Of a stretch of DNA of 64,000 nucleotides, positions 27,404 through 56,112 are shown one piece after another. Position 1 is the stretch's first letter. The number at the start of each line of letters is the position of its first letter. The DNA lies in assembly GCA_026387665.1 (NCBI GenBank), contig JAPLLG010000011.1:43396-107395 (forward strand), written 5' to 3'. Source of the stretch: Nitrospirota bacterium. Lineage in GTDB: Bacteria; Nitrospirota; Nitrospiria; Nitrospirales; Nitrospiraceae. The notes below the pieces were generated by a model. The model worked only from the letters and a program-made list of their open reading frames with translations. It made no database searches and was not told where the DNA came from. The position numbers were made by a program, and so were the translations under genes.

Positions 27404-29113
27404 CTAGCCCGCCGCCTTCATGGCGCGCAGGGTCGCCTTGAAGTGAAGCGAGGTCTTGGGACTGTCGAAGAAGGAGCGGAAGATGTCATGCACAAGGGTC
27501 CGATGGGCCACATGGTCGGCTTGAAACTGTTTCAGCGCCGTCGGCCGATCGGCTCCGTCATAGCCCATACGAATCGCGCAACGTTCAAGCTCGTCTTCCT
27601 CGTCCGGCAACGCGTGGGTCTGTAAGTCGTGCACCATCTGCAGCTTATGTTCCAGATCGCGCAGAAACACATAGGCCGCCGTCAGCGCATCCCGCTCCTT
27701 ACCGGAAATCAGCTTGAGCGGAACGAATCGCGTGAGCGCGCCCAGCGTACTGCGGTCGAGAAGCGCAGGAATGCGCTGGCCTCCCAACACTTGAATCGTC
27801 TGGACGAAAAACTCGATCTCCCTGATCCCCCCGACCCCCAGCTTCACATTGCGCCGCTCCTGTCCTCGCTCCGCCATCTTCGCATCGATCTGTTCCTTGA
27901 CCGACCGGACCTCCTGCACGACCGCAAGCCCCTCTTCGAGATCAGACCCTTTCGACGAGGGAAACAGGACAAAGGGCCGCACCTTCTTGATGAAGGTCTT
28001 TCCGACCTTCATGGAGCCAGCCACAGGCCAGGCCTTCAAGAGGGCCAGTCGTTCCCACACCTGCCCTCTGGTCCGATAGTATTTGGCATAAGCATCGAGC
28101 GTACGAGTCAGCTGCCCCACAGAACCTTCCGCCCGCAAGCGGAGGTCCACTCGATAGACATACCCCTCATGGGTCTGCTCGGTCAGCACCTTCGTCAACT
28201 CCCGCGCGAGCCGTTCAAAATATTCTTCATTGGAAATCCCGCGCGGCACAGGCCCCTTCGCCTTCGCCCGTCCGGACTTCACAGGCCTGGTCTCCCCCTC
28301 ATGGGATTCGCAGACATAGAGCAGGTCCACATCGGAACTGTAATTCAACTCATGGCCACCCAGCTTCCCCATCCCGATGACGGTAAAGCCGGTCTCCACC
28401 CACCGCCCCTGCCGGTTCTTGTGCATGGGAATGCCGTACTGAGCCCGCAAGTCTGTATCCACGATGCGACAGGCCTCGTCGATCAGGATCGACGCCAGGT
28501 CCGAGAGGGAGGCAGTGGTTTCCACCACATCCGCCAGACGAAGCAGATCCCGCACCCCGATACGCAGCATCTCACGACGGCGGAACCGCCTGAGCCCGTC
28601 CAACTTGAGTTCCGTGGCGGTCACCAGCCCGACCTGTTGCCGGACCGCCCGCTCCATCCCGACCCTCGTTGGCGCGCTGGACAAGACATGCTGTTCGGCC
28701 AGCCAGTAGATCAGCAGAGGATCGCGGACGAGGGTAAAGGCGAGGGAGTCGCTGTTCCCGAAGATTGAACAGACCAGATCCAACATGCGGGGAGAGCTGC
28801 GCAGATATTCCAGAATGGCCGACCGGCTGACTCCGCTGGCGAGCCACCGTTCCCAATGGTTCAAGGCCTGATCGGGATCGGCGGTCTTCCCGACTGCCTC
28901 AAGCAACAGAGGCAGGATCTCCGCTAACTGTCGCCGCTGGTGCGGATCGCCGGCCATCGACTGCAGATTCGCATCGGCGTCCTGAATGCGACTGAGCCCG
29001 TAGGATCGCAGGATCGATTCAACCTGGCCTTGGTCCAGCCCGGAAGCCAAGATAATAGGAGTGGGATCAGGCAGAGCCGCACGCTTCACCGGCTTGTTGA
29101 GACGATCTGCCAT
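27404..29113 (-). CDS. glnE: GlnE-type nucleotidyltransferase (single-domain glutamine synthetase adenylyl-transferase/removase homologue)
   Basis: 569 aa. GMGKLGGHELNYSSDVDLLYV nucleotidyltransferase motif plus a GlnE-like helical region. Only one NT domain, versus two in E. coli GlnE. Confidence 0.75.
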   Translation of the reverse strand: MADRLNKPVKRAALPDPTPIILASGLDQGQVESILRSYGLSRIQDADANLQSMAGDPHQRRQLAEILPLLLEAVGKTADPDQALNHWERWLASGVSRSAILEYLRSSPRMLDLVCSIFGNSDSLAFTLVRDPLLIYWLAEQHVLSSAPTRVGMERAVRQQVGLVTATELKLDGLRRFRRREMLRIGVRDLLRLADVVETTASLSDLASILIDEACRIVDTDLRAQYGIPMHKNRQGRWVETGFTVIGMGKLGGHELNYSSDVDLLYVCESHEGETRPVKSGRAKAKGPVPRGISNEEYFERLARELTKVLTEQTHEGYVYRVDLRLRAEGSVGQLTRTLDAYAKYYRTRGQVWERLALLKAWPVAGSMKVGKTFIKKVRPFVLFPSSKGSDLEEGLAVVQEVRSVKEQIDAKMAERGQERRNVKLGVGGIREIEFFVQTIQVLGGQRIPALLDRSTLGALTRFVPLKLISGKERDALTAAYVFLRDLEHKLQMVHDLQTHALPDEEDELERCAIRMGYDGADRPTALKQFQADHVAHRTLVHDIFRSFFDSPKTSLHFKATLRAMKAAG

Positions 29114-29178
29114 AGGCGGGCATTATAGCGGCCCCCCCGCACTCACACAATGAAGCAGGCTTGGGCTATACTCGACGC

Positions 29179-31449
29179 ATGGCGGACAAGCCGGACACGA
29201 GAGAATCCCTGATCGCGACCTTGGCCCCCCTCTGTCCCACGGTCGAGGAGGAGGTCCTCCGGGACTTCGTGTCACGGATGGACGCCGAATACTTCGAACG
29301 GTTCCCCGCCAAAACCATTGCACACCACATCCAGCTGACCAGCCGACTGACACAGGACCATCCCTGTGAACTGTCGGTGCGCCCTGGGCGGGATCAGCAT
29401 ATCGAGTTGAGCATCGTCGCCTACGACTACTTCTCCGAGTTCGCCACGATCTGCGGCCTGCTCTCTGCCTTCGGCCTGAACATCGAAGAGGGGCGCATTT
29501 ATACGTTTGCCGACGCGGCAGCCCATCCAACCAGGCTGGCCACAGCCGGGCCAGCGAAACGGTCCAAGAGCCGCCCCAGCCTGAGCCGCAAGAAGATCGT
29601 GGATGTCTTCCTCGTGTATCCGGTGAGTGGCGAACGATTTGCTGCGCCGGAACAGCAGGCCCTCACAGAGGCCCTGACCCACATGATGCAGCTGCTGGAG
29701 GTAGGGCAGTTCGACGAGGCCCGCCAATATGTCAATCGCAGGCTCGTCGAACGGTTAGGCCGGCAGCGAAGTGCCTTCACCGGCCTGCTCCATACAGTCC
29801 AGATCACCTTCGACAACAGTCAATCGCCGACCGATACGGTCATGGACATCCGATCGGAGGATACCCCGGCTTTCCTCTATGCCTTCGCCAATGCCCTGGC
29901 CATGAGGAACATCTATATCGCCAAGGCCCAGTTCGAAAGCGACGGAACCAAGCTCCACGATCGCTTTCATGTCAGGAACCGCTATGGGCAGAAACTGCTC
30001 GACCCAGCCGATCAGCAGCAACTGCGCCTGACCGCCGTCCTCATCAAACAATTCACCCATGCGCTCACCTGGGCTCCCGATCCTGGCAAGGCCCTCGAAT
30101 CCTTCGACCAATTTCTGGATCTCATCGTCGCCGACACAGGCAAGAAGGGCAAACAGGAGGCGCTCGACTTCATCAGCGACAAGAAAACCTTCCCCTTGCT
30201 CGCGCGACTGCTCGGCGCCAGCGACTATTTATGGGAAGACTTTCTCCGCCGCCAACATGGCAACCTGCTCCCCTTGCTCACGGAATACCGCGATGCGCCC
30301 CTCATCAAGCCGCAGCCAACCCTCAGGAAAGAACTCAACCGGCTGATCGCTCGCGCCAAAACGGACGAGGCGCGCAAGGAAGCCCTGAACCGGTTTAAGG
30401 ATCGGGAGCTCTTCCGGATCGACATGAAACATATCGTCGAACCCTCCAGCAATCTTCCAGACTTTTCGCTCGCCCTCACGGAACTGGCAGAAGTCATCAT
30501 GGAACGGAGCGTCGCAGACTGTCGAGCCAAGCTGGAGAAGGCCTATGGAAGCCCCAGGCTGGCCAACAAGAAACCCTGCCCCTTTGCCGTCCTCGGCCTG
30601 GGAAAACTCGGAGGGCGCGAGCTCGGCTACGCCTCGGACATCGAGGTGCTCTTCGTCTACGGGGGATCGGGCAAGACCAACGGGAGAAAGGGTATTGAAA
30701 ACAGCGAATTCTTTGAACGGCTGGCACAGGAACTCCTGGGCTGGATCGAAACCAAACAGGAAGGCATCTTTCACCTCGATGTGCGATTGCGCCCTCATGG
30801 AGGCAAGGGCTCCCTGGCCAATGCCTTCGAGGAGGTCTGCCGCTACTACAGTCCGACCGGACTCGCCGCCCCCTACGAGCGGCAGGCCTTGATCAAGCTG
30901 CGGCATATCGCAGGCGATGCTGCATTGGGCCATCGACTGGAGGCATACCGGGATTCTTTCGTCTATGGCGGAGCCCCCTGGGACATCCCCACGGCACTGG
31001 ACCTCCGGAAGCAACAACTCCGACAACTGGTCGCGCCAGGCAAGATCAACGTGAAGTACAGCCAGGGCGGAGTCATCGACATCGAATATGCAGTGCAGTA
31101 TCTCCAAGTGATACATGGCCACAAACGCCCAAGTCTCCGCACCCCGAACACCCTGCAGGCCCTCGCAGCCCTGGTGGAAGCAGGACTGGTCAATCGCGCC
31201 GATGGGGAGAGCCTCCGGAAAGCCTACGTCTTCACGAGAACGTTGATCGACGGATTGCGTATGGTACGGGGCAACGCCAAGGATCTGGTGCTTCCTCCGC
31301 CTGACTCAGAAGAGTTCATCTTTCTAGCCCGCCGCGTCGGCTACACCACCGACGACTGGCAGGCAGGAGCGAGACATTTACAGTCAGATATTGAGCAGCA
31401 CATGAAGCTGACCCAAGCCTTCTTCGAACGGACGTTCGGAATGCTGTAA
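29179..31449 (+). CDS. glnE: ACT-like domain + GlnE-type nucleotidyltransferase
   Basis: About 756 aa from ATG 29179. The N-terminus resembles GlnD-type ACT domains (IELSIVAYDYFSEFATICGLLSAFGLNIEEGRIYTF). This is followed by GLGKLGGRELGYASDIEVLFVY and a GlnE C-terminal region. Confidence 0.75.
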   Translation: MADKPDTRESLIATLAPLCPTVEEEVLRDFVSRMDAEYFERFPAKTIAHHIQLTSRLTQDHPCELSVRPGRDQHIELSIVAYDYFSEFATICGLLSAFGLNIEEGRIYTFADAAAHPTRLATAGPAKRSKSRPSLSRKKIVDVFLVYPVSGERFAAPEQQALTEALTHMMQLLEVGQFDEARQYVNRRLVERLGRQRSAFTGLLHTVQITFDNSQSPTDTVMDIRSEDTPAFLYAFANALAMRNIYIAKAQFESDGTKLHDRFHVRNRYGQKLLDPADQQQLRLTAVLIKQFTHALTWAPDPGKALESFDQFLDLIVADTGKKGKQEALDFISDKKTFPLLARLLGASDYLWEDFLRRQHGNLLPLLTEYRDAPLIKPQPTLRKELNRLIARAKTDEARKEALNRFKDRELFRIDMKHIVEPSSNLPDFSLALTELAEVIMERSVADCRAKLEKAYGSPRLANKKPCPFAVLGLGKLGGRELGYASDIEVLFVYGGSGKTNGRKGIENSEFFERLAQELLGWIETKQEGIFHLDVRLRPHGGKGSLANAFEEVCRYYSPTGLAAPYERQALIKLRHIAGDAALGHRLEAYRDSFVYGGAPWDIPTALDLRKQQLRQLVAPGKINVKYSQGGVIDIEYAVQYLQVIHGHKRPSLRTPNTLQALAALVEAGLVNRADGESLRKAYVFTRTLIDGLRMVRGNAKDLVLPPPDSEEFIFLARRVGYTTDDWQAGARHLQSDIEQHMKLTQAFFERTFGML

Positions 31450-36083: not shown

Positions 36084-37643
36084 CTAGGCCACCGTGGCGT
36101 TCGGCACCTGATTGCTAGCCGCAGGCTTCTTGGCCCCTCCCCTCACCCGATGCATCTTCTCTCTCGCGTGATAAGGCACGAGCCCTTCCAGCACCATCGG
36201 CAGCCTGTCGCAGGGCACATCCTCCATGATCTTGACCGCCAGCTTCGGATCTGGCCCTGAGCGGCCTCCCACATAGATATCGACGGCATCGACCACCTTG
36301 CCATCCACCTTGGCCTTCTTGCCCAAGAGCCCAATATCCGCCACGAGGTGATTCCCGCAGGCAGCGGGGCAGCCGGACCAATGCATGGTGATCGGCTTGA
36401 GTGTGCTACCCAACCGAGCCTCCAGCGCCTTCGCCGTCTCCACCGCCCGGCTCTTCGTTTCGATGACCGCCAGGTTGCAGTAGTCGCTGCCGACGCAACT
36501 CACCAGCCCCTTGTAGACCGGCGAGGGGTTATAGGCGAATTGCTTCACCAGCGGCTCCCGATCCAGATCGCCGATCTTCCGATCTGACACGTTCGTGATG
36601 ATCAGGGCCTGCGCCGGGGAAATCCTGACCTCCCCTGTTCCATACTTCTCTGCTAAGGCTGCAATCTTGGCCAGGTCATCGTGTGTGATACGGCCTACCA
36701 AGACCTTGAGCCCCACATAGTTCATGCCCGGTTGTCTTTGCCGATAGATGCCGATATGACTCTTCTCAACTGTTTTTCGCGCATCGAGACCGGCCGGCGA
36801 CAGTTTCTTTCCTATTCGCGTTTCCACTTCTTCCCGGAACCGGCTTTCGCCCCATTCCTCCAGCAAGAAGGCCAGCCTCGCTTGGGTCCGATTCTCTCTC
36901 GATCCATGCTCCCGGAATATTTCAATGATTGCGCGACTCACGGCCAAGACGTCCCCCTCGGTCACAAAGATATCCAGCGGTGTGGCGATCCGATAGCCGC
37001 CAGACCCGAGCTTGCCTCCTGCCAACAGGTTGTACCCAACTCTCTTGCCGTGACCATCGTCGTGAGTGGCCGGCACAAGGGCCAGGTCCTGGGTTTCCAT
37101 ATGGATGCAGTTGTCCGGACAGCCTGTGACCGCCACGTTGAATTTTCGCGGCAGGTTCGAATAGGCAGCATTGCCCAGGATCTCATCGTTGATGGCCCGC
37201 ACGAGTGGCGTCGCATCCGACACTTCGTCAGGACTCAGCCCGGCGACAGGACAGGTCATGACGTTTCGCACGTTGTCCATGCCGGTCTGGAGAGAGGTCA
37301 GCCCCACCTCCTCCATCTTGGCAAAGACAGCCGGCACGTCGTCAATCTTGATCTGCCGGAGCTGTATTTGTTGCCTCGTCGTGAGGTCCAGAACGCCGTT
37401 GCCATAGGTCCCGGCGATGGCAGCCAGCGCCTTCAATTGATACGAGCCGGTCTTGCCGCCCGGTATCCGCACCCGGATCATGAAAAATCCCGGCGTGGGA
37501 TTCCTCAGAAAGAGGCCATACCACTTCAGGCGCTGGACATCGTCCTCAGGGATCGATTCCCATCCCGTTTTGGCATAGTGAGCGATCATGTCTTTCACCG
37601 CCAACCCGTCGCGAACCGTTTTGAGGGCCTCGATTTTGTTCAT
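36084..37643 (-). CDS. nirA: ferredoxin-nitrite reductase (assimilatory, sirohaem/4Fe-4S)
   Basis: 519 aa from ATG 37643 (MNKIEALK...). NirA/SiR repeats with Cys clusters (TGCPDNC; SCVGSDYCNLA; SGCPAACG). The start overlaps the upstream ORF's stop (ATGA). Confidence 0.9.
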   Translation of the reverse strand: MNKIEALKTVRDGLAVKDMIAHYAKTGWESIPEDDVQRLKWYGLFLRNPTPGFFMIRVRIPGGKTGSYQLKALAAIAGTYGNGVLDLTTRQQIQLRQIKIDDVPAVFAKMEEVGLTSLQTGMDNVRNVMTCPVAGLSPDEVSDATPLVRAINDEILGNAAYSNLPRKFNVAVTGCPDNCIHMETQDLALVPATHDDGHGKRVGYNLLAGGKLGSGGYRIATPLDIFVTEGDVLAVSRAIIEIFREHGSRENRTQARLAFLLEEWGESRFREEVETRIGKKLSPAGLDARKTVEKSHIGIYRQRQPGMNYVGLKVLVGRITHDDLAKIAALAEKYGTGEVRISPAQALIITNVSDRKIGDLDREPLVKQFAYNPSPVYKGLVSCVGSDYCNLAVIETKSRAVETAKALEARLGSTLKPITMHWSGCPAACGNHLVADIGLLGKKAKVDGKVVDAVDIYVGGRSGPDPKLAVKIMEDVPCDRLPMVLEGLVPYHAREKMHRVRGGAKKPAASNQVPNATVA

Positions 37644-37858
37644 GTTCCTTTCTCCAATGCCACTCGATAGTCGACCCTGTTTCTCTTGAGCACCACGAAG
37701 CCGGCGCGATTGAGGCGATCGATGATTGAAAAGACCGTAACCCAATCCAAGCCAGGCAACCGGGTCAAGTCTTCGAGCGAACTCGCGCCGCACTCACGCA
37801 GCCGTTGTACCACACGATCCTCGTTCGACATCACAGCATGATCAATCATGGTCCCCAT
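37640..37858 (-). CDS. small winged-helix-like protein (hypothetical)
   Basis: 72 aa. The pattern V..L...G..SLEDL......D...V..II..L...G.V resembles FeoC/ArsR-size wHTH domains. Translationally coupled to nirA. Confidence 0.5.
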   Translation of the reverse strand: MGTMIDHAVMSNEDRVVQRLRECGASSLEDLTRLPGLDWVTVFSIIDRLNRAGFVVLKRNRVDYRVALEKGT

Positions 37859-42788: not shown

Positions 42789-44198
42789 CTAGACATCGTA
42801 GTACAGGTAGAACTCATACGGGTGCGGACGCAACCGCATGGTATCCACTTCCTTGGTGCGCTTGTACCCGATCCAGGCATTGATCAAGTCCTTGCTGAAG
42901 ACCCCGCCCTTGAGGAGGAACTCATGGTCCTTCTCCAGGTTGTTCAAGGCTTCATCCAGGCTGCCTGGCATCGTGCGGATCTTCGACGCTTCCTTGGCTT
43001 CGAGATCGTACAGATCCTGCTCGGCCGGTTCGCCCGGATTGATCTTGTTCTGGATGCCGTCCAACCCCGCCATGAGCATGGCGGAAAAGGCGAGATAAGG
43101 ATTCGCGGCCGGGTCAGGAAACCGCACCTCGATCCGCTTCGCCTTGGGGCTCGGTGAATACATGGGGATCCGGATGCCAGCCGACCGGTTCCGGCTGGAA
43201 TAGGCCAACAACACCGGCGCTTCGAACCCTGGCGTCAGACGCTTGTAGGAATTCGTGGTCGGGTTGGTAAAAGCGGCCAACGCCGGCGCATGCTTCAGAA
43301 TGCCGCCGATGTAATGTAGACACATCTGCGACACGCCCGCATATTCCTTCCCGGCGAACAGGGGCTTGCCATCCTTCCAGATGCTCTGGTGACTGTGCAT
43401 GCCTGACCCGTTGTCTCCGAAGATCGGCTTCGGCATGAAGGTCGCGGTCTTGCCATGGCGGCGGGCGACGTTCTTGACGATGTACTTGTACATCATCATC
43501 TTGTCGGCGGTGCGGACCAGCGAATCGAAGCGGATGTCGATTTCCGCCTGACCGGCCGTGGCGACTTCATGGTGATGCTTCTCGATCTGGATGCCGGCCT
43601 TCTCCATCTCCAGAATCATTTCGCTGCGGATATCCTGTTGCGTATCGGTCGGGGCGACCGGGAAATAGCCTTCCTTCTGACGGATCTTGCCGCCCAGGTT
43701 GTGGCCTTCCTGCCCCATATTCCAGACGCCTTCTTCGGAGTCGATGAAGTAGTAGCCGCTGTGGCCGTTCTGATCGTAGCGGGCTTGATCGAAAATGAAG
43801 AACTCGGCTTCCGGGCCCCAATAGGACGTGTCGCCGATCTTCGTGCTCTTGAGGTATTTCTCCGCCTTCTGCGCCACATAGCGCGGATCGCGATCGTAGG
43901 TCTCGCGCGTAATCGGATCGACGACGTTGCCGATGAGGCTCAGCGTCGGGACCGCACAGAAGGGATCGAGACAGGCCGTCGCCGGATCCGGCACGACCAA
44001 CATGTCGCTGTTATTGATGGCCTTCCAGCCACGAATGGAGGAGCCGTCCAATCCGGACCCGTCCTTGAAGAGGTCTTCCGTCAATTCGCTCGTCGGGATG
44101 CTGAAATGCTGCCACGTCCCGATGAGATCGACGAACTTCAAGTCCACGATCTGGACCTTATGCTTCTTCACATACTCCAACACCTCACGTACGTTCAT
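42789..44198 (-). CDS. glnA: glutamine synthetase type I
   Basis: 469 aa with canonical GSI motifs. Includes a NLYDLP-like adenylylation-loop region ([11 protein letters not shown]). Confidence 0.95.
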
Positions 44199-44244
44199 CC
44201 CACTCCTCCTTTCAAATCACCCGCATGAGACCCTGCCGCCTCTG

Positions 44245-46929
44245 CTAGGCCGCTTTCGCCTCGAGAAAATTCTCGATGGCCGTTTCAACTCCCGTTCGTA
44301 CCCGCTCCAATTGTCCGTGATCGTCGAGCTTCTTGCCCCGATGATCCGCGACATAAAACACGTCCGCCACCTGATCCAGCCTCGTGGAAATGCGGGCGGC
44401 ATGGATGGATAACCCAAGCTGAAAAATCGTGTTCGTGATCACATACAACAGACCCTGCCGGTCGTCGGCAAACACGTCGAGGATCGTATAGGCGTCCGAC
44501 GTTTCATTGTCGATCCGCACCTCCGTCGCTTCACGGGCTTTCGGCAAGGATCTCGTCAGCTTCAGCCGCGCGCCCCGGCGCAACACATCATCGACATGCT
44601 CCCAACCCTTGAGGACCGACGCAATCCGGTCGCCCACCGTCCGCAACCGCTCGGCCGGAGGGGCGCCCTGATAGTCCGGATCCATCACCTGAAACGTATC
44701 GACCACGATTCCATCGACTCTGGTGAGAATCTGCGCATCGAGAATCTGCACCCCGCTGCCGGCCATGACCCCGGCGATCTTCGAGAAAATGCCTGGCGTC
44801 ACGTCGTTATGGGTCACGACGCTATATTCGCAGGTTCCCAGCTCACTATTGAACTCCGCCTCCACCAGCACCTCGCCGACATGCAATCGTCGCACAGCCG
44901 CCAAATGCGCCGCAATACGGGCCGGCGACGTGCCATAGGCATAGCGTTCGGGGAATTGCCCCAACTGGCTCTCGACCCAGGCCAGAGTCCCACTTCCCTG
45001 CCCGGCCAGCAACGGATGGTTGCTGACCTCTTCGGCAATCTGGCGGACTCGCTCCGGAGCCATGACTCCATTCCGCTCCCCCGACACCTCGGCCATCGTG
45101 CGCTGATAGAGCTCGACCAGGAGCGATTCCTTCCACTTGGTCAAGACTCCGGGCCCGACCGCCGCGATATCGGCAGCCGTGAGCACCAACAGCTTATTCA
45201 AGACTTCCGGCGTCCCGACTTCGCGGGCAAAGGGCAGCACCACCTTCACGTCGTTCGGGTCCCGCCGAAAAGCCGTATGGGCCATCAGCAAATGCCGATG
45301 CACGAGGAACGACAGGGTCCGCAGATCCTGCTCATCAAGCCCGAGCCGGTCCGCGACATCCTCAGCTAAACGCCGCCCCACATCGCTATGATCTTCTTCC
45401 TGGCCCTTTCCCAAGTCGTGGAGCAGCACGGACAGGTGCAGGAGGTCCTTCCGCTTGATGCTGCGATAGATCTCCCCCATCGCCCCCTGGTCCTGGGCCA
45501 GGTCTTCCGCCCGCGCCACCGCGAGCAGACTATGCTCGTCGACCGTGTACTTATGGTACTGATTGAATTGCATCAGGCCACGGACCGTGCCCATGGCGGG
45601 CACCAGCTTTTCGAGCACTGAGGCCCGATGCATGGCCTCCAGGGTCTTGGCTGTGCCGGGCCCCGCGAGGATCGCCAAAAACGTCCGATTGACCTCCGGC
45701 GTCCGATAGGCCTCAGCCGAGACCGTATCGACATGCCGGTGAATATCTTCGAGTAGGGGCGGCGCGATGGTCAGCTGCTGCGAACGCGCCAAGTCGAACA
45801 GGCGAAGGAGCAGCGCCGGACTTTCCAGCACCCTCGCGCGATGGTCGTCCGCCACCGTCAGGATTCCGCCCCGTACGACAAAGTAGCCATCGACGCGGGG
45901 CGCCGGAAAAAACCGCGTGATCCGTTGCCAGAACGGCACACTCCGGCATCGTTCGACAAATCGCATACAACGCTCATGCAACCCCATCGTGTGCAGGTAA
46001 TACTGTTGCATGAACTGCTCGACGGCCAGTAAATGAGGCCGGTCCTGGAACCCAAAATGTTGTGCCAGCCAGATCTGCTCGTCGAACGACAAAATCTCCT
46101 GCGCCGTGCCTGCATGCACATGGAGGAGCGCCCGGACTCGCCAGAGGAAATCCCGCGCCTCTGTCAGGGCCATCGAATCGGCCCGTGAGAGGATGCCGCG
46201 ATCGGACAGCTCACGAATCGTCGGGGCCTGATAGCGGGCCATGCCGGCCCATTGGAGCAGGTGCAAATCACGCAGACCGCCTTTGCTTTTCTTGACGTTC
46301 GGCTCCAGCAAATAGACCGTCTCGCCGAACTTGAGATATTCGCGCCGGCGCTCTTCCAGCTTTTGATCCAAGTAGGTATCCGTGCCCTTGGCTACGATTT
46401 TCCGGAGATACCGGCTATGAAACTGCTCGAACAGCTCAGGGCTTCCCGCGAGAAACCGGGACTCCATCATCGAGGTCTTGACTGTCGCATCGCTCTCGGC
46501 CAGCTCCATACAATCGTTGATCGTCCGCACGCTATGTCCGACCTGAAATCCACAGTCCCACAAGGGATGCAGGACTGCTCGCACGAGCGATTCGACCTGC
46601 ATTTTGGCCTCAGGACGATAGAGCACCATCAGATCGATGTCCGAATAGGGGGCCAGTTCGCGGCGTCCGTACCCGCCCAGGGCCACGAGACAGCATTGGT
46701 GGAGACCGGCTGAGGCCGCCACATCGCCCCCCTCCCGCACGGCATTCCGATAGCGCCCCACGATCAGCCCATCCACCAGCTCCGTCATCGCCGCCATCGT
46801 CTCTGCGCCGCTGGAGCCAGCCATCACCCGCTGCGCAATGATGCGTCGCTGCTCAGCGAGGAACAGGCCGACCGTCGACGGATCGACGGTCGGCGCTGAC
46901 GTACTGGATGAATCGTGCGTGACGCCCAT
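44245..46929 (-). CDS. glnD: [protein-PII] uridylyltransferase/uridylyl-removing enzyme
   Basis: 894 aa. NT domain (GGYGRRELAPYSDIDLMVLY), HD domain (HDLGKG), and two C-terminal ACT domains. Confidence 0.92.
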   Translation of the reverse strand: MGVTHDSSSTSAPTVDPSTVGLFLAEQRRIIAQRVMAGSSGAETMAAMTELVDGLIVGRYRNAVREGGDVAASAGLHQCCLVALGGYGRRELAPYSDIDLMVLYRPEAKMQVESLVRAVLHPLWDCGFQVGHSVRTINDCMELAESDATVKTSMMESRFLAGSPELFEQFHSRYLRKIVAKGTDTYLDQKLEERRREYLKFGETVYLLEPNVKKSKGGLRDLHLLQWAGMARYQAPTIRELSDRGILSRADSMALTEARDFLWRVRALLHVHAGTAQEILSFDEQIWLAQHFGFQDRPHLLAVEQFMQQYYLHTMGLHERCMRFVERCRSVPFWQRITRFFPAPRVDGYFVVRGGILTVADDHRARVLESPALLLRLFDLARSQQLTIAPPLLEDIHRHVDTVSAEAYRTPEVNRTFLAILAGPGTAKTLEAMHRASVLEKLVPAMGTVRGLMQFNQYHKYTVDEHSLLAVARAEDLAQDQGAMGEIYRSIKRKDLLHLSVLLHDLGKGQEEDHSDVGRRLAEDVADRLGLDEQDLRTLSFLVHRHLLMAHTAFRRDPNDVKVVLPFAREVGTPEVLNKLLVLTAADIAAVGPGVLTKWKESLLVELYQRTMAEVSGERNGVMAPERVRQIAEEVSNHPLLAGQGSGTLAWVESQLGQFPERYAYGTSPARIAAHLAAVRRLHVGEVLVEAEFNSELGTCEYSVVTHNDVTPGIFSKIAGVMAGSGVQILDAQILTRVDGIVVDTFQVMDPDYQGAPPAERLRTVGDRIASVLKGWEHVDDVLRRGARLKLTRSLPKAREATEVRIDNETSDAYTILDVFADDRQGLLYVITNTIFQLGLSIHAARISTRLDQVADVFYVADHRGKKLDDHGQLERVRTGVETAIENFLEAKAA

Positions 46930-46931
46930 GG

Positions 46932-47282
<351 letters not shown>

Positions 47283-47367
47283 TTACCTGGCTGACCCGAA
47301 AGCAACGACTGTACATCGTCGCTGGGGTCGCCGGCATGATCGCGTGGTCGATAGTGTCATGGTCCGT

Positions 47368-48774
47368 TTATGAATAGGCCCGCTCATTATGCTGGCTGAG
47401 GTCCAGCCCGGTTGATTCGTCTTCCGGAGAGACCCGCAACCCCACCGTTATATTCACCACCTTCAAAATAATCCAGGTGCCGATCACGGAAAACAGCGCC
47501 ACCGCGCAAACCATGACGGCCTGAATGCCCAACTGTCCGGCATTCCCGAAAAAGAGCCCGTCAGCCCCGGCGGCATTGATCGCCTTGGAGGCGAATAGCC
47601 CTGTCGCGAGGATGCCGAAGACTCCGCCCACACCGTGGATTCCCACGACGTCAAGCGAGTCATCATAGCCCATCCTCCCCTTCCAAACAACGGCGAAATA
47701 GCACAGAAACCCTGCAAAAACGCCAATTACGATCGCTGAAAACGGTCCGATATAGCCGGAAGCCGGCGTCACAGTCGCCAGGCCGGCCACCGCGCCGCTG
47801 GCCAGACCGAGCACGGTGGGCCTTCCGCGATGGGCCCACTCCACCCCCATCCACACCAGGGCGCCAGTGACCGCCGCCGCATGGGTCGCCAGGAAGGTGC
47901 TCCCGGCCAGCCCATTCGCCCCCAACGCACTGCCCGCGTTGAACCCGAACCAGCCGAACCAGAGGAGGCCGGTTCCCAACAGCGTAAAGGGCAGGTTATG
48001 AGGAGCCATGTAATCGGCTCCATGGCCCTTGCGCTTTCCCATCACGATGGCGCAGACCAGGGCGCTCACCCCGGAACTGATATGCACCACCGCGCCGCCG
48101 GCAAAATCCAGCGCGCCCATCTTCCCCAGCCATCCACCGCCCCAGATCCAATGGGCCACCGGAGAATAAATCAACAGGGACCACAAGGCCGCAAACAGCA
48201 GCAGCGCAGAAAACTTCATCCGCTCCGCAAACGCCCCGGTGATCAGAGCCGGCGTAATCGCGGCGAACATGAGCTGGAATAACATGAACACTTGATGGGG
48301 AATCGTCGGGCCATAGACGGGATGCGGCTCGCTGCCCACCCCGCTAAGCCCAACCCACTCAAGGCCTCCGATGAAGCCCCCCTTATCGGGGCCGAACGCC
48401 AGGCTGTACCCGACAAGAATCCAGATCAGACTGACCAGACACAGAATGACGAGACTCTGCATGATCGTCCCCAGGATGTTCTTGCTTCGAACAAGACCCC
48501 CGTAGAAGAGCGCCAAGCCTGGCATCGTCATAAGCAAGACCATCGCCGTGGACATAAGAACCCATGCCGTATCCCCCGTATCGATCTTCAGCACAGGGGC
48601 TGCGGCAGCGGCGACCGCTTCAACCGGTGCGACCGCTGTGTCCTGAGCCACGACTGGCCCAGTAAAGGCCGCCATGACTCCCACCAGCAAGGCCGCGATG
48701 CTCAGGCCTGCGGACAGGAGCGTCCGTTGGTGCGTTCGCTTGCGACTACAGTCTCGTTCCTGGTCAATCACCAT
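47368..48774 (-). CDS. amtB: ammonium transporter
   Basis: Amt/MEP family motifs (DFAGG.VVH, GVHG.GG..G). ATG 48774 is preceded by GGAGAAGGAGGGG. Confidence 0.92.
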   Translation of the reverse strand: MVIDQERDCSRKRTHQRTLLSAGLSIAALLVGVMAAFTGPVVAQDTAVAPVEAVAAAAAPVLKIDTGDTAWVLMSTAMVLLMTMPGLALFYGGLVRSKNILGTIMQSLVILCLVSLIWILVGYSLAFGPDKGGFIGGLEWVGLSGVGSEPHPVYGPTIPHQVFMLFQLMFAAITPALITGAFAERMKFSALLLFAALWSLLIYSPVAHWIWGGGWLGKMGALDFAGGAVVHISSGVSALVCAIVMGKRKGHGADYMAPHNLPFTLLGTGLLWFGWFGFNAGSALGANGLAGSTFLATHAAAVTGALVWMGVEWAHRGRPTVLGLASGAVAGLATVTPASGYIGPFSAIVIGVFAGFLCYFAVVWKGRMGYDDSLDVVGIHGVGGVFGILATGLFASKAINAAGADGLFFGNAGQLGIQAVMVCAVALFSVIGTWIILKVVNITVGLRVSPEDESTGLDLSQHNERAYS

Positions 48775-48801
48775 CCCCTCCTTCTCCTCGGTCACCCCTG
48801 C

Positions 48802-50190
48802 TTACGAATAGGACCGTTCCTCATGTTGACTGAGGTCCAAGCCCATTCGCTCTTCCTCTTCACTCACACGCAGCCCCATCAATCCATCCACCAGTTTCAG
48901 AATCACGAAGGTTCCCACGAACGAAAACACCACCGAGATCAGCACGGCCATCGCTTGAATGCCCAACTGTGCCGGATTCCCGTAGAACAGCCCGTCGGCG
49001 CCGGCTGCATTGATCGCCTTCGAGGCAAACAACCCGGTCGCCAGCGCGCCCCAGATGCCTCCGACTCCATGAATCCCCACCACATCGAGGGCGTCATCGT
49101 AGCCCAGCCTGGACTTCCACAACACCGCTCCATAGCAGAGGACTCCCGCCCCCAGACCGATCACGATCGACGCCATCGGACCGACGAATCCCGAAGCAGG
49201 CGTAATCGCCACCAGCCCAGCCACCGCGCCGCTGGCCGCGCCCAGCACGGTCGGTTTGCCTCGATACATCCACTCCGCAACCATCCAGGCCAGCGCTGCA
49301 GTGGCTGCCGCCGTATTGGTCACAACAAAGGCGCTGGTCGCCAACGCTCCGGAAGCGACCGCGCTACCTGCGTTGAACCCGAACCAGCCGAACCAAAGCA
49401 GGGAGGCGCCCAGCACGGTCATAGGCAAATTATGCGGAGCCATATGTTCCTTGCCGTAGCCCAATCGCTTCCTCAGCACGATGGCACAGGCCAGGGCCGC
49501 AGCGCCGGAACTGATGTGGACGACCGTCCCGCCGGCGAAGTCCAGCGCTCCCATGTTTCGAACCCAGCCCCCGACCGCCCACACCCAATGGGCGAGCGGA
49601 TCGTAGATGAACGTCGCCCACAACAAAGTGAAGACCAGAAAACTGCCGAACTTCATCCGTTCGGCAAAGGCGCCGGTCATGAGGGCCGGCGTAATCACCG
49701 CGAACATCATTTGAAAGATCATGAAGGCTTGATGGGGCACGGTCGCGGCATAATCAGCGTTGGGCTCCAACCCGACGCCGTTCAGCCCGATCCATTCAAG
49801 CCCGCCAATCAGATGGGCCTTATCCGGCCCGAAGGCCAGACTGTAGCCCCACAAGACCCACTGGAGACTGATCAGGCAGAGAATGATAAAGCTCTGCATG
49901 ATCGTGCCCAAAGCATTCTTCGAGCGAACCATGCCGGCATAAAACAAGGCCAGACCTGGCGCCGTCATCGCCAGCACCAATGCCGTCGAGACCAATAGCC
50001 AGGTCGTGTCGCCCGTATCGATCTTCGTCTGGGCTGGTACGACCGCCGGGGCCGCCTCTTGGCCAAGAGGCGCCGTCGCTGCCGGAGCCGGAGCCCCCGC
50101 GTCTTGCGCATAGAGACCCGTCGCCCCGATCAGGATAGCGCAGGCCAGGACGGGAAGCATCGCGGTCATGATACGTGTAAATCGGTTCAT
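48802..50190 (-). CDS. amtB: ammonium transporter (paralogue)
   Basis: 462 aa Amt family protein with a signal-like N-terminus and a strong RBS. Confidence 0.92.
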   Translation of the reverse strand: MNRFTRIMTAMLPVLACAILIGATGLYAQDAGAPAPAATAPLGQEAAPAVVPAQTKIDTGDTTWLLVSTALVLAMTAPGLALFYAGMVRSKNALGTIMQSFIILCLISLQWVLWGYSLAFGPDKAHLIGGLEWIGLNGVGLEPNADYAATVPHQAFMIFQMMFAVITPALMTGAFAERMKFGSFLVFTLLWATFIYDPLAHWVWAVGGWVRNMGALDFAGGTVVHISSGAAALACAIVLRKRLGYGKEHMAPHNLPMTVLGASLLWFGWFGFNAGSAVASGALATSAFVVTNTAAATAALAWMVAEWMYRGKPTVLGAASGAVAGLVAITPASGFVGPMASIVIGLGAGVLCYGAVLWKSRLGYDDALDVVGIHGVGGIWGALATGLFASKAINAAGADGLFYGNPAQLGIQAMAVLISVVFSFVGTFVILKLVDGLMGLRVSEEEERMGLDLSQHEERSYS

Positions 50191-50213: not shown

Positions 50214-51518
50214 TTAGAAGAGGTAGATGATTTGGAATGACAGGGTTTCTTGATTGTTCACCGGTCGATTGCCATAGAGAAACACGTTCTTGTCTGATTT
50301 ATCGTACCGGAACTCGGTCCGCGTGATCAGAGAAGGAAATGGCTTGTATTGAAGCGTAAAGGTATTCTCCCAGAGTGTTTGAGCCGTCGGCGGGGCCGCG
50401 ACCGTCGCGGTCGCCCCCGCACAGGTATTGGTGCCTCCGGCAAACCCGAATGTTCCACTACAGGTCCGAGCCCCTCCCGCATCCTCGAAGATTTCCCCGC
50501 GGAATCTGGCGCTCCATTGATCGGTGAAATCATGGGTCAGGTAGCCGGCCAGCCCATTCCATCGAGCATTTCGTGATCGGTTGACCGTGCTCGCGTTCCC
50601 TTCATTCCCGTAGTAGGGCTCCAGAACGATCGTGTCCTGGTCGGTGGCCTTGACGGTCATGATCGTCCCCACCACCGTCCGCTTGGCCGTCGGATCGGCG
50701 CCGGTGGAGGCAGGTGCCGTCCCTTGGCTGTTGGATTGCTCTGCGCCGTAGGACCCGTAGAAACTCATACCGAACTTCTCATGCGGTGTCAGAGCCAGGA
50801 GCCACTCAAAGGATTTGCTCTTGTTGTTATCCGTCACGTTATCCCACCCGTTGATCACGCCGATCGAGGCAGTCACAAGCGGATTGAACGTATAGCTGAG
50901 CCGGACGCCGGTGGTCGTGAAGGCCTGACCCAAGCCGAACATGAAACTGCGGGAAAAGTTCGGGTTCTCGAAACTGTTGATCACCTCATAGCCGATCAAC
51001 GTATTGATCTTCCCTGCTTGAATCTTCAGGCCATTGCCAACCGGGGCGATGTATTCGCCGTAGACCTCTTGAAAGTCGAGCTCGTTGTTGCTGGTGCCTG
51101 GCGCGAAATTGGTACGCGCCCTCGTCACCCTGGCATCCAACCCGAAGTTCAGCCTGGTACGGAACCCGAGCCGGTCCATGCCGCTCCCCGCTCCATCAGC
51201 AGGCCGTTCAAGCATGATTTGCACCATGTGGGTCGAAAAGGAATTCGCATCGGTGTCGAAGATATGCAGTTGATTGAGATTGGTATTGGGATTATTGAAA
51301 TTGTGGGTATAGGCTACATCCAGAAACCCGGAGGCCTTGAATCCCAAGGTCTTCCAGATGGACGGCGCATCCACTTTCTTCTCTAAGGAATCCAGCCGCT
51401 CCTGCACGGTCGGCGCCGGGGCCGGCGGCGCCGCTGGCCCTTGGGCAAATACTGCGTTGCCGCCGAGCAGCGACAACAGCGCCCACAATCCTATACAGAT
51501 GAGACTGCGTACTGACAT
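50214..51518 (-). CDS. outer-membrane porin (nitrogen-cluster associated)
   Basis: Start set at ATG 51518 (MSVRSLICIGLWALLSLLGGNAVFAQG signal peptide, GGAGGA RBS). Beta-strand-rich with a terminal ...FQIIYLF. The longer track ORF translates the leader RNA. Confidence 0.75.
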   Translation of the reverse strand: MSVRSLICIGLWALLSLLGGNAVFAQGPAAPPAPAPTVQERLDSLEKKVDAPSIWKTLGFKASGFLDVAYTHNFNNPNTNLNQLHIFDTDANSFSTHMVQIMLERPADGAGSGMDRLGFRTRLNFGLDARVTRARTNFAPGTSNNELDFQEVYGEYIAPVGNGLKIQAGKINTLIGYEVINSFENPNFSRSFMFGLGQAFTTTGVRLSYTFNPLVTASIGVINGWDNVTDNNKSKSFEWLLALTPHEKFGMSFYGSYGAEQSNSQGTAPASTGADPTAKRTVVGTIMTVKATDQDTIVLEPYYGNEGNASTVNRSRNARWNGLAGYLTHDFTDQWSARFRGEIFEDAGGARTCSGTFGFAGGTNTCAGATATVAAPPTAQTLWENTFTLQYKPFPSLITRTEFRYDKSDKNVFLYGNRPVNNQETLSFQIIYLF

Positions 51519-51711
51519 AGTGACATCCTCCCTCGTCCGATTGGTGATTCCGTTGCTCATGCCCCTTGCCGCTCTCACCTCGACGACGTCGTCGCCACGC
51601 ACGCCCTTGTGCGCAATCTCTCTCCCCTCACGTCCAGATCGATTCCACCAGCCAACCGATCCATCTCGATTCTCAGCTTTTCCACGCGATTCAGCCTGCT
51701 CGAGTGTAGTC

Positions 51712-51803
51712 AAAAAAAAACGCCCTCTAGCCCGCTGGGGCTGGAGGACGCCATTGTCCATGCCGTACTATCTTGAGGCCGGTGGGAAACGCCGTTGTTC
51801 CCC
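51712..51803 (-). promoter_or_regulatory. ANTAR-type antiterminator/terminator leader 3 (before porin-amt-amt-glnB-glnD-glnA)
   Basis: Minus sense. P1 is GGGGAAC-AACGGC-GUUUCCC (51784-51803), followed by a ~23-nt linker. P2 is GGAC-AAUGGC-GUCC (51746-51759). The terminator CGUCCUC-c-AGCCC-cagc-GGGCU-a-GAGGGCG + U9 (51712-51750) reuses the 3' arm of P2. Confidence 0.7.
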
Positions 51804-51818
51804 TGTCCGATGGGCCAC

Positions 51819-51848
51819 CTTGTATCATGTAGCGGGAAAATCTGTCAA
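51819..51848 (-). promoter_or_regulatory. candidate sigma-70-type promoter for leader 3
   Basis: Minus sense TTGACA-N18-TACAAG, ending about 16 nt before P1. Confidence 0.3.
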
Positions 51849-51914
51849 CGTCTTTGCCTGTCATATACTCCGGCCTGGCCAGGACCTATCGTCTGTGCTA
51901 GATTCACTCATACT

Positions 51915-52886
51915 ATGCTCCTTCCATCGCCATCCTCGCCGATAGAGTTGCCACGCAAGTCTGCGTTTTCCCTGGTCCTCCTCTGTCTTCTCTGCGCCGC
52001 CTGTACGATGGTCGACCAGAGCGACAGAGTCCTCTTCGAAGACCCGCGCGGAACGGTGACGCTGCACCGGATGCCAGATCAATCGATTCAGGCCAGTCAC
52101 CCGATCAGCCTGGAGCCAGCCCTCATCGCCCGTGTCTTGAGCGGCATGCAGGTCCAGGAACGCCAACGGACCCTCCAAGAGATGTTGGGTGGATCGGCCT
52201 CCGCCTTGCCGGTCTTTTCGCCCGAAGAAGTCCAATTCCTCACTCCCAGGATTACCAAAGCCCTCACAACCGCCTCAACGGGAGAGGCCGTATCATTCCA
52301 GGTCACGAGCCCTCGCCAAAACACTGGCCGCTTGGAACATGCAGTCATCGAAACCACGACAGGCTCTCTCTACGCTTATGGCCTCTCGCTGTATGTGACG
52401 CTCGCTCAATATCGACATGCGCCGACCCAAGCGAACACGGACGGGCTTGCCCACCGGAAGCTGCCAGACTCGTCCAACCTGTCAAATCGCACCCTGTCGT
52501 TCACTCCAAGCCTTGCCCAACGGTCCGATACTTTCAACCGGTCGACAGGCGGAAGCTCGACCGACCGGTTTCTCGTCATCGACTATCAGCTGCTGCAACA
52601 GACCGCGCCAGTAGCAGCAACAACCACTGAGCAACCTGCGCCTCAGGTGGAACGGGCCGCACAACCTCGCGAGCCTCTCGCGGGAGTCACGCCACCCAAT
52701 ACTCCATCCCGCACCGCAGAGCCCCTGGCTCAGCGCGAAATGGAGATTCGCACGTTGAAAGATCTCGTGGTCAAAAAAGACTTGGAGTTGGAAACCGTCA
52801 GGAAGGAACTGCAATCAGTTCGCAAACAACTCGATAGCCAGAAGCGAAAACCCGCACCGTTAAAGCCCCGGCAGATCGCCCCGTAA
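51915..52886 (+). CDS. lipoprotein with C-terminal coiled coil (hypothetical)
   Basis: ATG 51915. Lipobox-like LLCAAC and a C-terminal heptad-like region LKDLVVKKDLELETVRKELQSVRKQLD. Confidence 0.55.
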   Translation: MLLPSPSSPIELPRKSAFSLVLLCLLCAACTMVDQSDRVLFEDPRGTVTLHRMPDQSIQASHPISLEPALIARVLSGMQVQERQRTLQEMLGGSASALPVFSPEEVQFLTPRITKALTTASTGEAVSFQVTSPRQNTGRLEHAVIETTTGSLYAYGLSLYVTLAQYRHAPTQANTDGLAHRKLPDSSNLSNRTLSFTPSLAQRSDTFNRSTGGSSTDRFLVIDYQLLQQTAPVAATTTEQPAPQVERAAQPREPLAGVTPPNTPSRTAEPLAQREMEIRTLKDLVVKKDLELETVRKELQSVRKQLDSQKRKPAPLKPRQIAP

Positions 52887-54846: not shown

Positions 54847-56112
54847 TTAGTGCCTGACTCGATCGGCCCGTTCTTCGATATCGCCCGCGAGGAGAATCGC
54901 CTCGGCGATCTCGCGCATCGATTTCCGAAGATCCATACTTTGGCGTTGAATGAGCTTGAAGGCCTCTTCTTCGGTCAGCTTCTTCGCACGCATGAGATAA
55001 CCCTTGGCCCGCTCCATGAGCTTCCGAACCGCCAGCGCTTCCTGCATCTCGAAGGACTTCTCGATCAGGGTCGTATGCTCGATGGCGATGGCCGCCTGAT
55101 TCGCGATGGCCTGGAGTAGCTTGACCTCTTCGCTGGTAAACACGTGAGGCACGGCCGTATAGCTATTGATCACCCCCACAGCCTTTTCCCGCACCATCAT
55201 CGGGACAGAGACCATCGAACAGAGCCCTTCCTTCTTGGCCAAATCCGGGAACATATAGTCCTGCTCTTTAGTCACGTCGGCCACAATGATCGGCCTGCGA
55301 TCTTGCACGGCGCGCCCGCTGATACTCTGCCCGACCTTGAGGTTCGGCTTCCGGCGGTATTGCTCGCTGAGGCTTTGCGTCGCCTCGATCCGCAACTCTC
55401 CACTCACCTGATCCAGCAACATGATCGAGCAGATCTTGGAATTCATCATTTGCGCGGTCATCGTGACCAGGAGTTGCAGCACATCTTCGATCAAACGATT
55501 GGAGGCCACCGTTTCCGACACCAGCGACAGGGTTTCCACCTGCAGGGCCTTGCGTTTCATTTGATCGTAGAGCCGCGCATTCTCAATCGCGCCACCGACC
55601 TGATTGGCAATAGTGGACAACAGCGCGATCTCGTCGGGCCGATAGCGCTTGGGACGCTTGTGCTGCACATTGATCACGCCAACCACTTCCTTCTTGGCCA
55701 TGATCGGCACGGAGACAAAGGCTTGATGGCGGTCTTCCGGAAGGTTGTGAAAAAACTTGAAGCGCGGGTCGTCGCTCGCATTGCTCGGAATCACAACGCG
55801 GGTCCGTTCCTGGGCTACCCACCCGGTGATGCCCTCGCCCAACCCGATCGTGATGCGGCCGATTAATTTCGGATGGGGATTCTTGGAGGCTCGCAGGATG
55901 AGTTCGTCCTGGCCATCCGACAAGAGATAGAGAAGACAGGCATCCGCCTTAGTGACTTCGACGACCACTTCGACGATATGCCGGAGGACGGCTTCAAGAT
56001 CCAGCTGGTTGCTGATCGATTCCGTGATCCGATGGAGCACATCGACTTCGCGTGTTTTTTCGCGCAACGCCTGCTGGAGATGAGCCACGGAGGGTGTGCG
56101 TTTGGTCGTCAT
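54847..56112 (-). CDS. GAF-GAF-ANTAR RNA-binding antitermination regulator
   Basis: 421 aa. Two GAF-like halves (each ending ..VGVIN...) followed by ALAVRKLMERAKGYLMRAKKLTEEEAFKLIQRQSMDLRKSMREIAEAIL. This matches the ANTAR consensus (..IE.AKG.LM....L.E.EA...L...SM..........A..I.). Confidence 0.88.
   Translation of the reverse strand: MTTKRTPSVAHLQQALREKTREVDVLHRITESISNQLDLEAVLRHIVEVVVEVTKADACLLYLLSDGQDELILRASKNPHPKLIGRITIGLGEGITGWVAQERTRVVIPSNASDDPRFKFFHNLPEDRHQAFVSVPIMAKKEVVGVINVQHKRPKRYRPDEIALLSTIANQVGGAIENARLYDQMKRKALQVETLSLVSETVASNRLIEDVLQLLVTMTAQMMNSKICSIMLLDQVSGELRIEATQSLSEQYRRKPNLKVGQSISGRAVQDRRPIIVADVTKEQDYMFPDLAKKEGLCSMVSVPMMVREKAVGVINSYTAVPHVFTSEEVKLLQAIANQAAIAIEHTTLIEKSFEMQEALAVRKLMERAKGYLMRAKKLTEEEAFKLIQRQSMDLRKSMREIAEAILLAGDIEERADRVRH

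Follow-up and report, generated by a model that had tools for sequence, protein, structure and literature searches.

A 64,000-nucleotide (nt) stretch of a Nitrospirota bacterium genome (NCBI GenBank assembly GCA_026387665.1, contig JAPLLG010000011.1, positions 43,396 to 107,395) raises the question of how a set of nitrogen-assimilation genes is controlled after transcription has begun. On its minus strand, the whole stretch, hereafter the window, carries the genes porin-amt-amt-glnB-glnD-glnA, and the porin gene that opens the series is preceded by a structured leader. A first reading of the letters (the original prediction) had proposed that this leader carries two hexaloop hairpins nested with a terminator, to be overcome by an unnamed protein. 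The best explanation of the locus, and a very probable one, is an ANTAR-type transcription-antitermination leader for which a neighbouring GAF-GAF-ANTAR protein is the proposed antiterminator.

Read in the sense of transcription, the leader consists of a promoter, a first hairpin (P1), a linker, a second hairpin (P2) and an intrinsic terminator (coordinates of all features are collected in Table 1). The 18-nt spacer between the -35 and -10 boxes ends in TGa. P1 begins 15 nt after TACAAG, and its AACGGC loop is closed by a C-G pair. The terminator hairpin is 14 base pairs (bp) long, is interrupted by a 1x1 internal loop and ends in the loop CAGC. P2 and the terminator are physically entangled: the P2 loop bases GGC together with the P2 3' arm are the 5' arm of the terminator, the shared bases being 51752-51746. 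These elements agree closely with the original prediction. The letters bear out its TTGACA-N18-TACAAG promoter, whose boxes stand at fixed spacing in 24 orthologous leaders, and its nested terminator and U9 tract are exact, with the use of the P2 3' arm as terminator 5' arm kept among orthologues. The predicted P1 and P2 sequences also stand, P1 with compensatory changes in addition; the spacing before P1 (given as ~16 nt) and the linker (given as ~23 nt, in fact 24 nt) were each off by one.

A consensus scanner for terminators and promoters flagged neither the leader terminator nor the leader promoter. The scanner was blind to the terminator because of the 1x1 internal loop, and to the promoter because the -10 box has no final T; folding and conservation were therefore used for both elements. 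The minimum-free-energy structure returned by RNAfold for the leader is P1 plus the terminator, with partial internal pairing predicted in the linker. When the hairpins are folded singly, the predicted energies are -8.6 kcal/mol for P1, -4.0 for P2 and -20.8 for the terminator, which bears out the earlier description of P2 as weak relative to a strong terminator. P2 and the terminator are mutually exclusive through their shared bases, and folding of the growing transcript predicts P2 until the 3' arm of the terminator has been made, after which P2 is displaced.

In the mechanism proposed here, RNA polymerase would initiate a few bases ahead of P1, at the conserved TTGACA / TGnTACAAG promoter. 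P1 would fold first, displaying its AACGGC loop closed by C-G, and P2 would fold second, worth only about -4 kcal/mol. Where nothing holds P2, the 14-bp terminator (about -21 kcal/mol) would take over the P2 loop and 3' arm, and transcription would stop at the U9 tract, leaving an RNA of about 100 nt. An active GAF-GAF-ANTAR dimer would instead bind the P1 loop and then the P2 loop; P2 would stay closed, and polymerase would read on into porin-amt-amt-glnB-glnD-glnA.

This arrangement corresponds to the ANTAR target as described by Ramesh 2012, namely two hairpins of at least 3 bp, hexaloops with A1 and G4, a variable linker, and a P2 that overlaps an intrinsic terminator (PMC3369931). The porin leader has hairpins of 7 and 4 bp, A1/G4 hexaloops and a P2-terminator overlap, and an ANTAR protein is encoded in the window. 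The same study reported matches in many bacteria upstream of genes for PII, ammonium transporters, nitrate/nitrite transporters and glutamine/glutamate synthesis (PMC3369931). Membership of the class is assigned from this list of features because no Rfam model matched: a search of the 64 kb gave 0 matches at gathering score, and one of 51500-51900 at E <= 10 gave nothing above noise.

The Rfam search also bears on a different explanation of the locus. Since this is a conserved structured leader before glnA and amt genes, it could be a metabolite riboswitch, for example for glutamine, or a purely kinetic attenuator that works without protein. Glutamine riboswitches exist in other phyla. Such an explanation is extremely improbable here, however: neither the glutamine riboswitch nor other Rfam cis-regulatory families gave a match even at E <= 10, and beyond its loops the RNA is just two short hairpins, whose conserved part is the ANTAR loop bases and the closing pair, not a ligand pocket.

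The whole window was scanned for pairs of hairpins of at least 4 bp with AANGRC loops, 2-45 nt apart. Three such dual hexaloops were observed, at 51803-51746, 42716-42656 and 38846-38782, against 0.005 expected from first-order Markov simulations of the window; all three lie on the minus strand, before nitrogen genes. A chance origin of the dual hexaloops is excluded. A covariance model, R1, was built from a pooled alignment (A2) of 31 dual hexaloops representing all three leader types, and scored the porin leader, leader 2 and leader 1 of the window at 76.7, 64.1 and 48.3 bits, respectively.

Conservation was followed in 42 genome loci and 80 metagenome loci fetched with a porin query. The leader is kept in about 22 Nitrospira genome loci, and of the 80 independent metagenome loci R1 recovers it in about 58; among the fetched loci, the leader is missing from porin paralogues that have no amt behind them. 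A second alignment, A1, comprises 24 leaders, 22 of them directly upstream of a porin orthologue and two being extra copies. TTGACA is invariant in all 24 while its flanking columns vary. In the extended -10 element, which stands at a fixed distance from the -35 box, TG is kept in at least 90%, and the hexamer keeps T1, A2, A4 and A5 with few or no exceptions. A sigma-54 reading of 'TGGTACA' was rejected at this point: the base after TG is A, G, C or T among the orthologues, so the GG of a -24 element is not kept. In the hairpins, loop positions A2, G4 and C6 of both P1 and P2 and the closing C-G pairs are invariant, and A1 is present in at least 90% of P1 loops and in every P2 loop. The sequence GGACAANGNCGUCC is invariant in all A1 orthologues; the terminator keeps its outer stem, and the T-run is present throughout. 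The linker measures 21-29 nt in close relatives and is shorter in divergent lineages (about 15 nt in L082).

Covariation supports two of the three helices. In the pooled alignment A2, P1 is 99% paired, with compensatory change in six of its seven pairs, and its covariation score of 0.427 (0.195 in shuffles) was reached by 0 of 500 shuffles. The independent metagenome matches give the same picture, with 96.5% pairing, four of seven pairs compensated and a score of 0.232 against 0.112, again reached by 0 of 500 shuffles. The RNAalifold consensus consists of P1 plus the terminator, and compensatory changes occur in the inner stem of the terminator. The sequences of A2 were picked by the pattern GGACAA.G.CGTCC, so the invariance of P2 in that alignment is there by construction.

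Several observations weigh against an ANTAR antitermination leader served by the neighbouring protein. The final base of the -10 hexamer is G, C or A, and never T, in the 24 orthologues; the divergent lineage L087 has TGaTATAAT where the window has TGaTACAAG, and the promoter call is therefore supported despite the terminal G in the window. A few loops carry G1 and not A1 (P1 of L005 and the tandem leaders of L022). The core pairs of P2 show no covariation, either in orthologues or in model-based matches; they never vary, and an invariant sequence yields no covariation. We infer the pairing of P2 from its perfect inverted repeat and by analogy, not from covariation; one unselected variant, GGAC/GUCU, retains pairing, with the terminator compensating. 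At 24 nt, the linker is longer than the 5-12 nt that work in EutV leaders, where 14 nt already impairs induction (PMC3369931), and it fits the definition of a variable linker. The curated Rfam models gave no membership match, a result that counts as neutral, the presence of an ANTAR-target model in Rfam not being established. Finally, the true protein partner could be encoded elsewhere in the genome, beyond the 64-kb window.

The apparent strength of the promoter and of the terminator, in an RNA with two loops of protein-binding type, would also suit a terminated transcript of about 100 nt that is itself a functional small RNA, titrating the ANTAR protein or acting in trans, with an essentially constitutive terminator. 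EutX/Rli55 of Enterococcus and Listeria is a small RNA that acts in this way. For the present leader this is very unlikely. Between the terminator and the porin gene no further promoter can be seen, and the sequence in between is itself retained, as a stretch of the porin 5' untranslated region (5' UTR). The same design stands directly before two other nitrogen operons, once within an operon after cynS, and it is the P2-terminator overlap that is conserved.

The porin ATG lies at 51518-51516, with GGGAGGA (51532-51526) 7 nt upstream and a signal peptide following, and this start is conserved across orthologues; the 515-residue open reading frame (ORF) 50214-51761 is therefore an over-extension. 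The original prediction, which had this ORF running through the leader and put the true start at 51518, was thus correct, and its distance of ~190 nt from terminator to start codon is counted here as 193 nt from the U-tract to the ATG. The porin is 97% identical to one in a Nitrospira metagenome-assembled genome (MAG), and the window belongs to a nitrite-oxidising Nitrospira related closely to N. lenta. The genes porin-amt-amt-glnB-glnD-glnA are separated by gaps of 2-97 nt, with no strong intergenic terminator between them before leader 2, and probably form one operon. Upstream on the minus strand lie aroB (DHQS), the GAF-GAF-ANTAR gene and a glutamine-dependent NAD synthetase gene (nadE). 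Between nadE and the leader, a plus-strand gene for a conserved lipoprotein, absent from the original prediction, diverges from the leader. Transcription from upstream therefore does not enter the leader, which must have a promoter to itself.

The gene for the GAF-GAF-ANTAR protein lies 3 kb upstream of the leader. Its ANTAR domain scores 66.7 bits against PF03861 (cut-off 27.3), with residues 356-407 aligned to positions 3-54 of the 54-position profile, and matches the chains of Rv1626 (1.1e-8), EutV (2.3e-5) and NasR (4e-4). The order aroB - ANTAR - nadE - lipoprotein - leader - porin is kept in about 18 Nitrospira loci, and more than 100 Nitrospira homologues share 87-98% identity with the protein; their annotation goes no further than 'GAF and ANTAR domain-containing protein' or 'signal transduction protein with GAF and PtsI domain'. 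The syntenic ANTAR gene turns the unnamed protein of the original prediction into a specific candidate pairing. We infer that the GAF-GAF-ANTAR protein binds these loops and that its binding causes read-through.

The sensory half of the protein suggests what the signal may be. The N-terminal GAF domain is closest to the GAF of PtsP/EI-Ntr (PDB 3ci6, 5.7e-24; NCBIfam PtsP, 1.3e-37) and to that of NifA (2e-29). The GAF domain of NifA responds to 2-oxoglutarate. That of PtsP binds glutamine (PMC4848567). From this likeness to PtsP and NifA, direct sensing of cellular nitrogen status is proposed; by analogy, the GAF-GAF-ANTAR protein may sense nitrogen status and allow read-through when nitrogen is short. 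No experimentally characterised GAF-ANTAR architecture was found in the literature searched.

The leader could also be a genuine ANTAR target whose regulator is another ANTAR protein elsewhere, for example a NasT-like or GnfR-like response regulator, with the neighbouring protein doing something else. The portion of the genome that is visible is 64 kb, and in those loci of deltaproteobacterial MAGs that carry similar leaders, the sequence flanking the porin, to at most 10 kb either way, showed no ANTAR gene. This alternative is nevertheless unlikely, given that the position of the GAF-GAF-ANTAR gene relative to the leader is kept in about 18 Nitrospira loci, that the protein itself is 87-98% conserved, and that its sensor resembles nitrogen-status GAF domains.

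With the GAF-GAF-ANTAR protein as the favoured antiterminator, the other two dual hexaloops of the window extend its potential reach. Leader 2 has its own promoter, TTGACG-N17-TACATG, directly after glnA, and contains two attenuators in tandem. Attenuator 2a joins a canonical dual hexaloop to a terminator whose T-run is weak. Attenuator 2b, about 60 nt further on, combines a P1-like hairpin (loop GAGGAA), an extra 8-bp hairpin, a hairpin of P2 type (GGAC[AAUGGC]GUCC) and a T7 terminator. Leader 1 is internal to an operon: it comes immediately after the stop codon of cynS, has no promoter of its own and is followed by genes for a NirC-like transporter and a ferredoxin-nitrite reductase (36084-37793). 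Leaders 1 and 2 would put cyanate/nitrite uptake, cyanase and nitrite reductase under shared control, as a nitrogen-assimilation regulon.

Similar leaders occur beyond this set of genes and beyond this genus. In other Nitrospira MAGs the same leader precedes an alpha-type carbonic anhydrase gene (L026, 6427-7560, minus strand) and genes for a protein of 306-321 residues without a family (L018, 5452-6549; L022, 594-1745, minus strand). The tandem leaders of L022 have G at loop position 1 in three of four loops (GAUGAG, GAUGAC, GACGAC). In deltaproteobacterial MAGs, GGC[AANGGC]GCC hairpins stand upstream of homologous porin genes, with a terminator-like T-run in four; in two of these loci (L034 and L039) amt and PII genes come after the porin gene. 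An ANTAR leader followed by a porin is therefore not an arrangement of Nitrospira only.

The 193-nt spacer between terminator and porin start holds two further hairpins, P3 and P4, which the original prediction did not mention and which have no terminator after them. P3 and P4 are kept in 20 genome loci and 35 metagenome sequences. In the P3 loop, A1, A2 and G4 never change, whereas positions 3, 5 and 6 do. In P4, the GAC/GUC stem and loop G4 are invariant, A2 is present in at least 90%, and position 1 is G or A; P4 loops in other lineages read AACGUC, AACGAC and AAUGGG. Between P3 and P2 there is one compensatory G-C to C-G swap; within the P3 and P4 stems there is no covariation, the sequences being too conserved. 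P3 as a palindromic DNA operator was considered as the principal interpretation and rejected: what would be the operator's spacer keeps A1, A2 and G4 and varies at 3, 5 and 6, which is the ANTAR loop signature. Four loci (L007, L012, L021 and L022) have an insert of about 450 nt between the terminator and P3/P4, and in these P3/P4 still adjoin the porin gene; the insert of L022 contains a small ORF with a signal-peptide-like or lipoprotein-like N-terminus.

Folding suggests a function for these hairpins. The 136-nt 5' UTR segment folds at -50.5 kcal/mol (z = -3.5), a stability that none of 200 shuffles attained. The predicted structure contains a long-range helix between the P3/P4 region and the porin translation-initiation region, which pairs the AUG with 51603-51601 in the P3 3' arm; forcing P3 to form frees the AUG at a folding cost of about 11 kcal/mol. 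Sequestration of the AUG is predicted in 35 of 53 distinct 5' UTRs, including a divergent clade in which pairing is displaced by 4 nt and changes in the P3 loop are matched by changes in codons 3-4. As a universal feature it was rejected, since it reaches only these 35 and is not predicted in the MKS-start clade (porins beginning M-K-S). In the clade of the window, 89.8% of cells in the long-range helix are paired, four pairs are compensatory, and 10 of 500 shuffles reach this level, the structure having been derived from one of the aligned sequences, so that the slid-partner controls are flattering. It is a reasonable hypothesis, drawn from these folding models, that ANTAR binding at P3/P4 would open the porin start codon and thereby provide a translational tier of control.

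Table 1. Coordinates of the porin leader, its candidate regulator and related features. Positions refer to the window unless a locus handle is given.
Feature	Position	Strand	Remarks
-35 box TTGACA	51848-51843	(-)	read from letters
Extended -10 TGaTACAAG	51827-51819	(-)	TG 51827-51826; TACAAG 51824-51819
P1 hairpin GGGGAAC[AACGGC]GUUUCCC, 7 bp, proposed recruitment hairpin	51803-51784	(-)	
P1-P2 linker, 24 nt	51783-51760	(-)	
P2 hairpin GGAC[AAUGGC]GUCC, 4 bp, proposed antiterminator hairpin	51759-51746	(-)	
Terminator hairpin CGUCCUC-c-AGCCC-cagc-GGGCU-a-GAGGGCG	51750-51721	(-)	two G.U pairs extend to 51752
U9 tract of terminator	51720-51712	(-)	read from letters
P3 hairpin UUGCGCAC[AAGGGC]GUGCGUGG in porin 5' UTR	51616-51595	(-)	
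P4 hairpin CGAC[GACGUC]GUCG, directly after P3	51594-51581	(-)	
Porin translation-initiation region	51547-51497	(-)	predicted long-range helix with 51623-51575 (P3/P4 region)
BBP2/OmpL-type outer-membrane porin, signal peptide, first gene	50214-51518	(-)	PF07642, 1.5e-71
amt, amt, glnB/K (PII), glnD, glnA	42789-50190	(-)	Pfam and NCBIfam matches
GAF-GAF-ANTAR one-component protein, 421 residues, candidate regulator	54847-56112	(-)	PF03861, 1.5e-18, and two GAF domains
Leader 2, two tandem attenuators, before nrtA-like ABC transporter and cynS	42716-42515	(-)	64.1 and 17.1 bits
Leader 1, dual hexaloop and terminator, between cynS and nirC-like transporter/nirA	38847-38746	(-)	48.3 bits
Conserved lipoprotein gene, 323 residues	51915-52886	(+)	diverges from leader
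Deltaproteobacterial GnfR-like hexaloop hairpins and T-run	L032 1188-1290		
Deltaproteobacterial GnfR-like hexaloop hairpins and T-run	L034 3511-3600		
Deltaproteobacterial GnfR-like hexaloop hairpins and T-run	L039 3378-3520		
Deltaproteobacterial GnfR-like hexaloop hairpins and T-run	L042 9709-9776		

Among the neighbouring genes, the divergent lipoprotein has no Pfam or NCBIfam family match, and full-length tblastn conservation of 55-98% in Nitrospira loci, exceeding that of the antisense 'orf124'. The latter (51861-52235, minus strand) had been a candidate gene between nadE and the leader and was rejected as an antisense artefact: conservation of the plus-strand frame spans its whole length and reaches higher identity, and its product carries a lipoprotein signal peptide. 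A plus-strand promoter-like sequence, CTGTCA-16-TATACT (51842-51869), overlaps the leader -35 box back to back. Elsewhere in the window, two divergent genes at 27404-29113 (minus strand) and 29161-31449 (plus strand) each encode GlnE adenylyltransferase and GlnD_UR_UTase domains, one also with an ACT-like domain; GlnE may be split or duplicated near the nitrogen regulon.

Nitrospira are the dominant nitrite oxidisers, and also complete nitrifiers (comammox), of soils, waters and treatment plants. The locus offers a circuit made up of a candidate regulator gene, three or more RNA operators and a putative regulon of porin, Amt, PII, GlnD, glutamine synthetase, cyanate/nitrite uptake, cyanase and NirA, as well as a natural system for the GAF-ANTAR architecture. 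In its most far-reaching form, the proposal would be that one GAF-GAF-ANTAR protein senses glutamine or 2-oxoglutarate directly and is the master regulator of Nitrospira nitrogen assimilation, acting wholly after initiation from constitutive promoters and in two tiers on one mRNA, antitermination at P1/P2 and translational activation of the porin at P3/P4; as a whole this is possible and rather doubtful. If true, it would be a possible case of a single ANTAR protein that governs one transcript at the level of termination and of translation. This class of mechanism is well established, and the gain is one of physiology and family breadth, not of principle; interest attaches to the GAF-ANTAR sensor, to a motif employed across a whole regulon and to a possible translational tier.

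The porin leader is very probably an ANTAR antitermination leader, and as such belongs to an established mechanism class; the Nitrospira case is undescribed in the literature searched, which contained no description of ANTAR or antitermination in Nitrospira, the supplements of Ramesh 2012 included. The EutV system of Enterococcus faecalis (eutP, eutG, eutS and eutA leaders) shares dual hexaloops, A1/G4, a sequence-specific closing pair and the exclusivity of P2 and terminator. EutV binds as a dimer, and its two loops are bound in succession (PMC3369931; Walshe 2022, PMC8934654). The eut linker, however, is 5-12 nt and length-sensitive, whereas that of Nitrospira is 24 nt, and about 15-29 nt across lineages. 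EutV is also a REC-ANTAR protein under EutW and ethanolamine, and the Nitrospira loops are tighter (AANGRC with a C-G closing pair), with a P2 of fixed sequence.

NasR with nasF of Klebsiella oxytoca, NasT and AmiR are likewise one-component or partner-controlled ANTAR antiterminators with essential A1/G4 hexaloops in nitrogen assimilation. Their sensor is a NIT domain (for nitrate or nitrite) or a partner protein, in contrast to the tandem GAF of the Nitrospira candidate, and each serves a single operon, whereas the putative Nitrospira regulon has three or more leaders. For P3/P4, a possible analogue is found in actinobacterial ANTAR-target RNAs (Mehta and Ramesh, PMC8164766; bioRxiv 10.1101/660928), which are terminator-less dual hexaloops in 5' UTRs that control translation. 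The actinobacterial motif overlaps the ORF start and its binding represses, whereas P3/P4 lie 60-100 nt upstream and the predicted release of the AUG would be an activation.

The closest studied relative is the Geobacter GnfK/GnfR system. GnfR of Geobacter sulfurreducens binds CAGGCAANGGCGCC at the terminator-containing leaders of nifH, glnK and amtB (Ueki and Lovley 2010, PMC2995071). There, too, an ANTAR protein relieves premature termination at nitrogen genes, amtB and glnK among them, and its site overlaps the terminator. The bound site and the Nitrospira hairpins share the core C[AANGGC]G, and P1 of leader 2 contains GGCAAUGGCGCC exactly. The two systems differ in that GnfR, a response regulator of REC-ANTAR type, is phosphorylated and has a separate kinase, whereas the candidate here is a one-component GAF-GAF-ANTAR protein; in that GnfR target promoters are RpoN-dependent and the Nitrospira leader promoter looks sigma-70-like; and in the stems, which are GGAC/GUCC in Nitrospira P2 and GGC/GCC in GnfR sites. 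Moreover, the present organism fixes no nitrogen, and its operon adds a porin, glnD and glnA.

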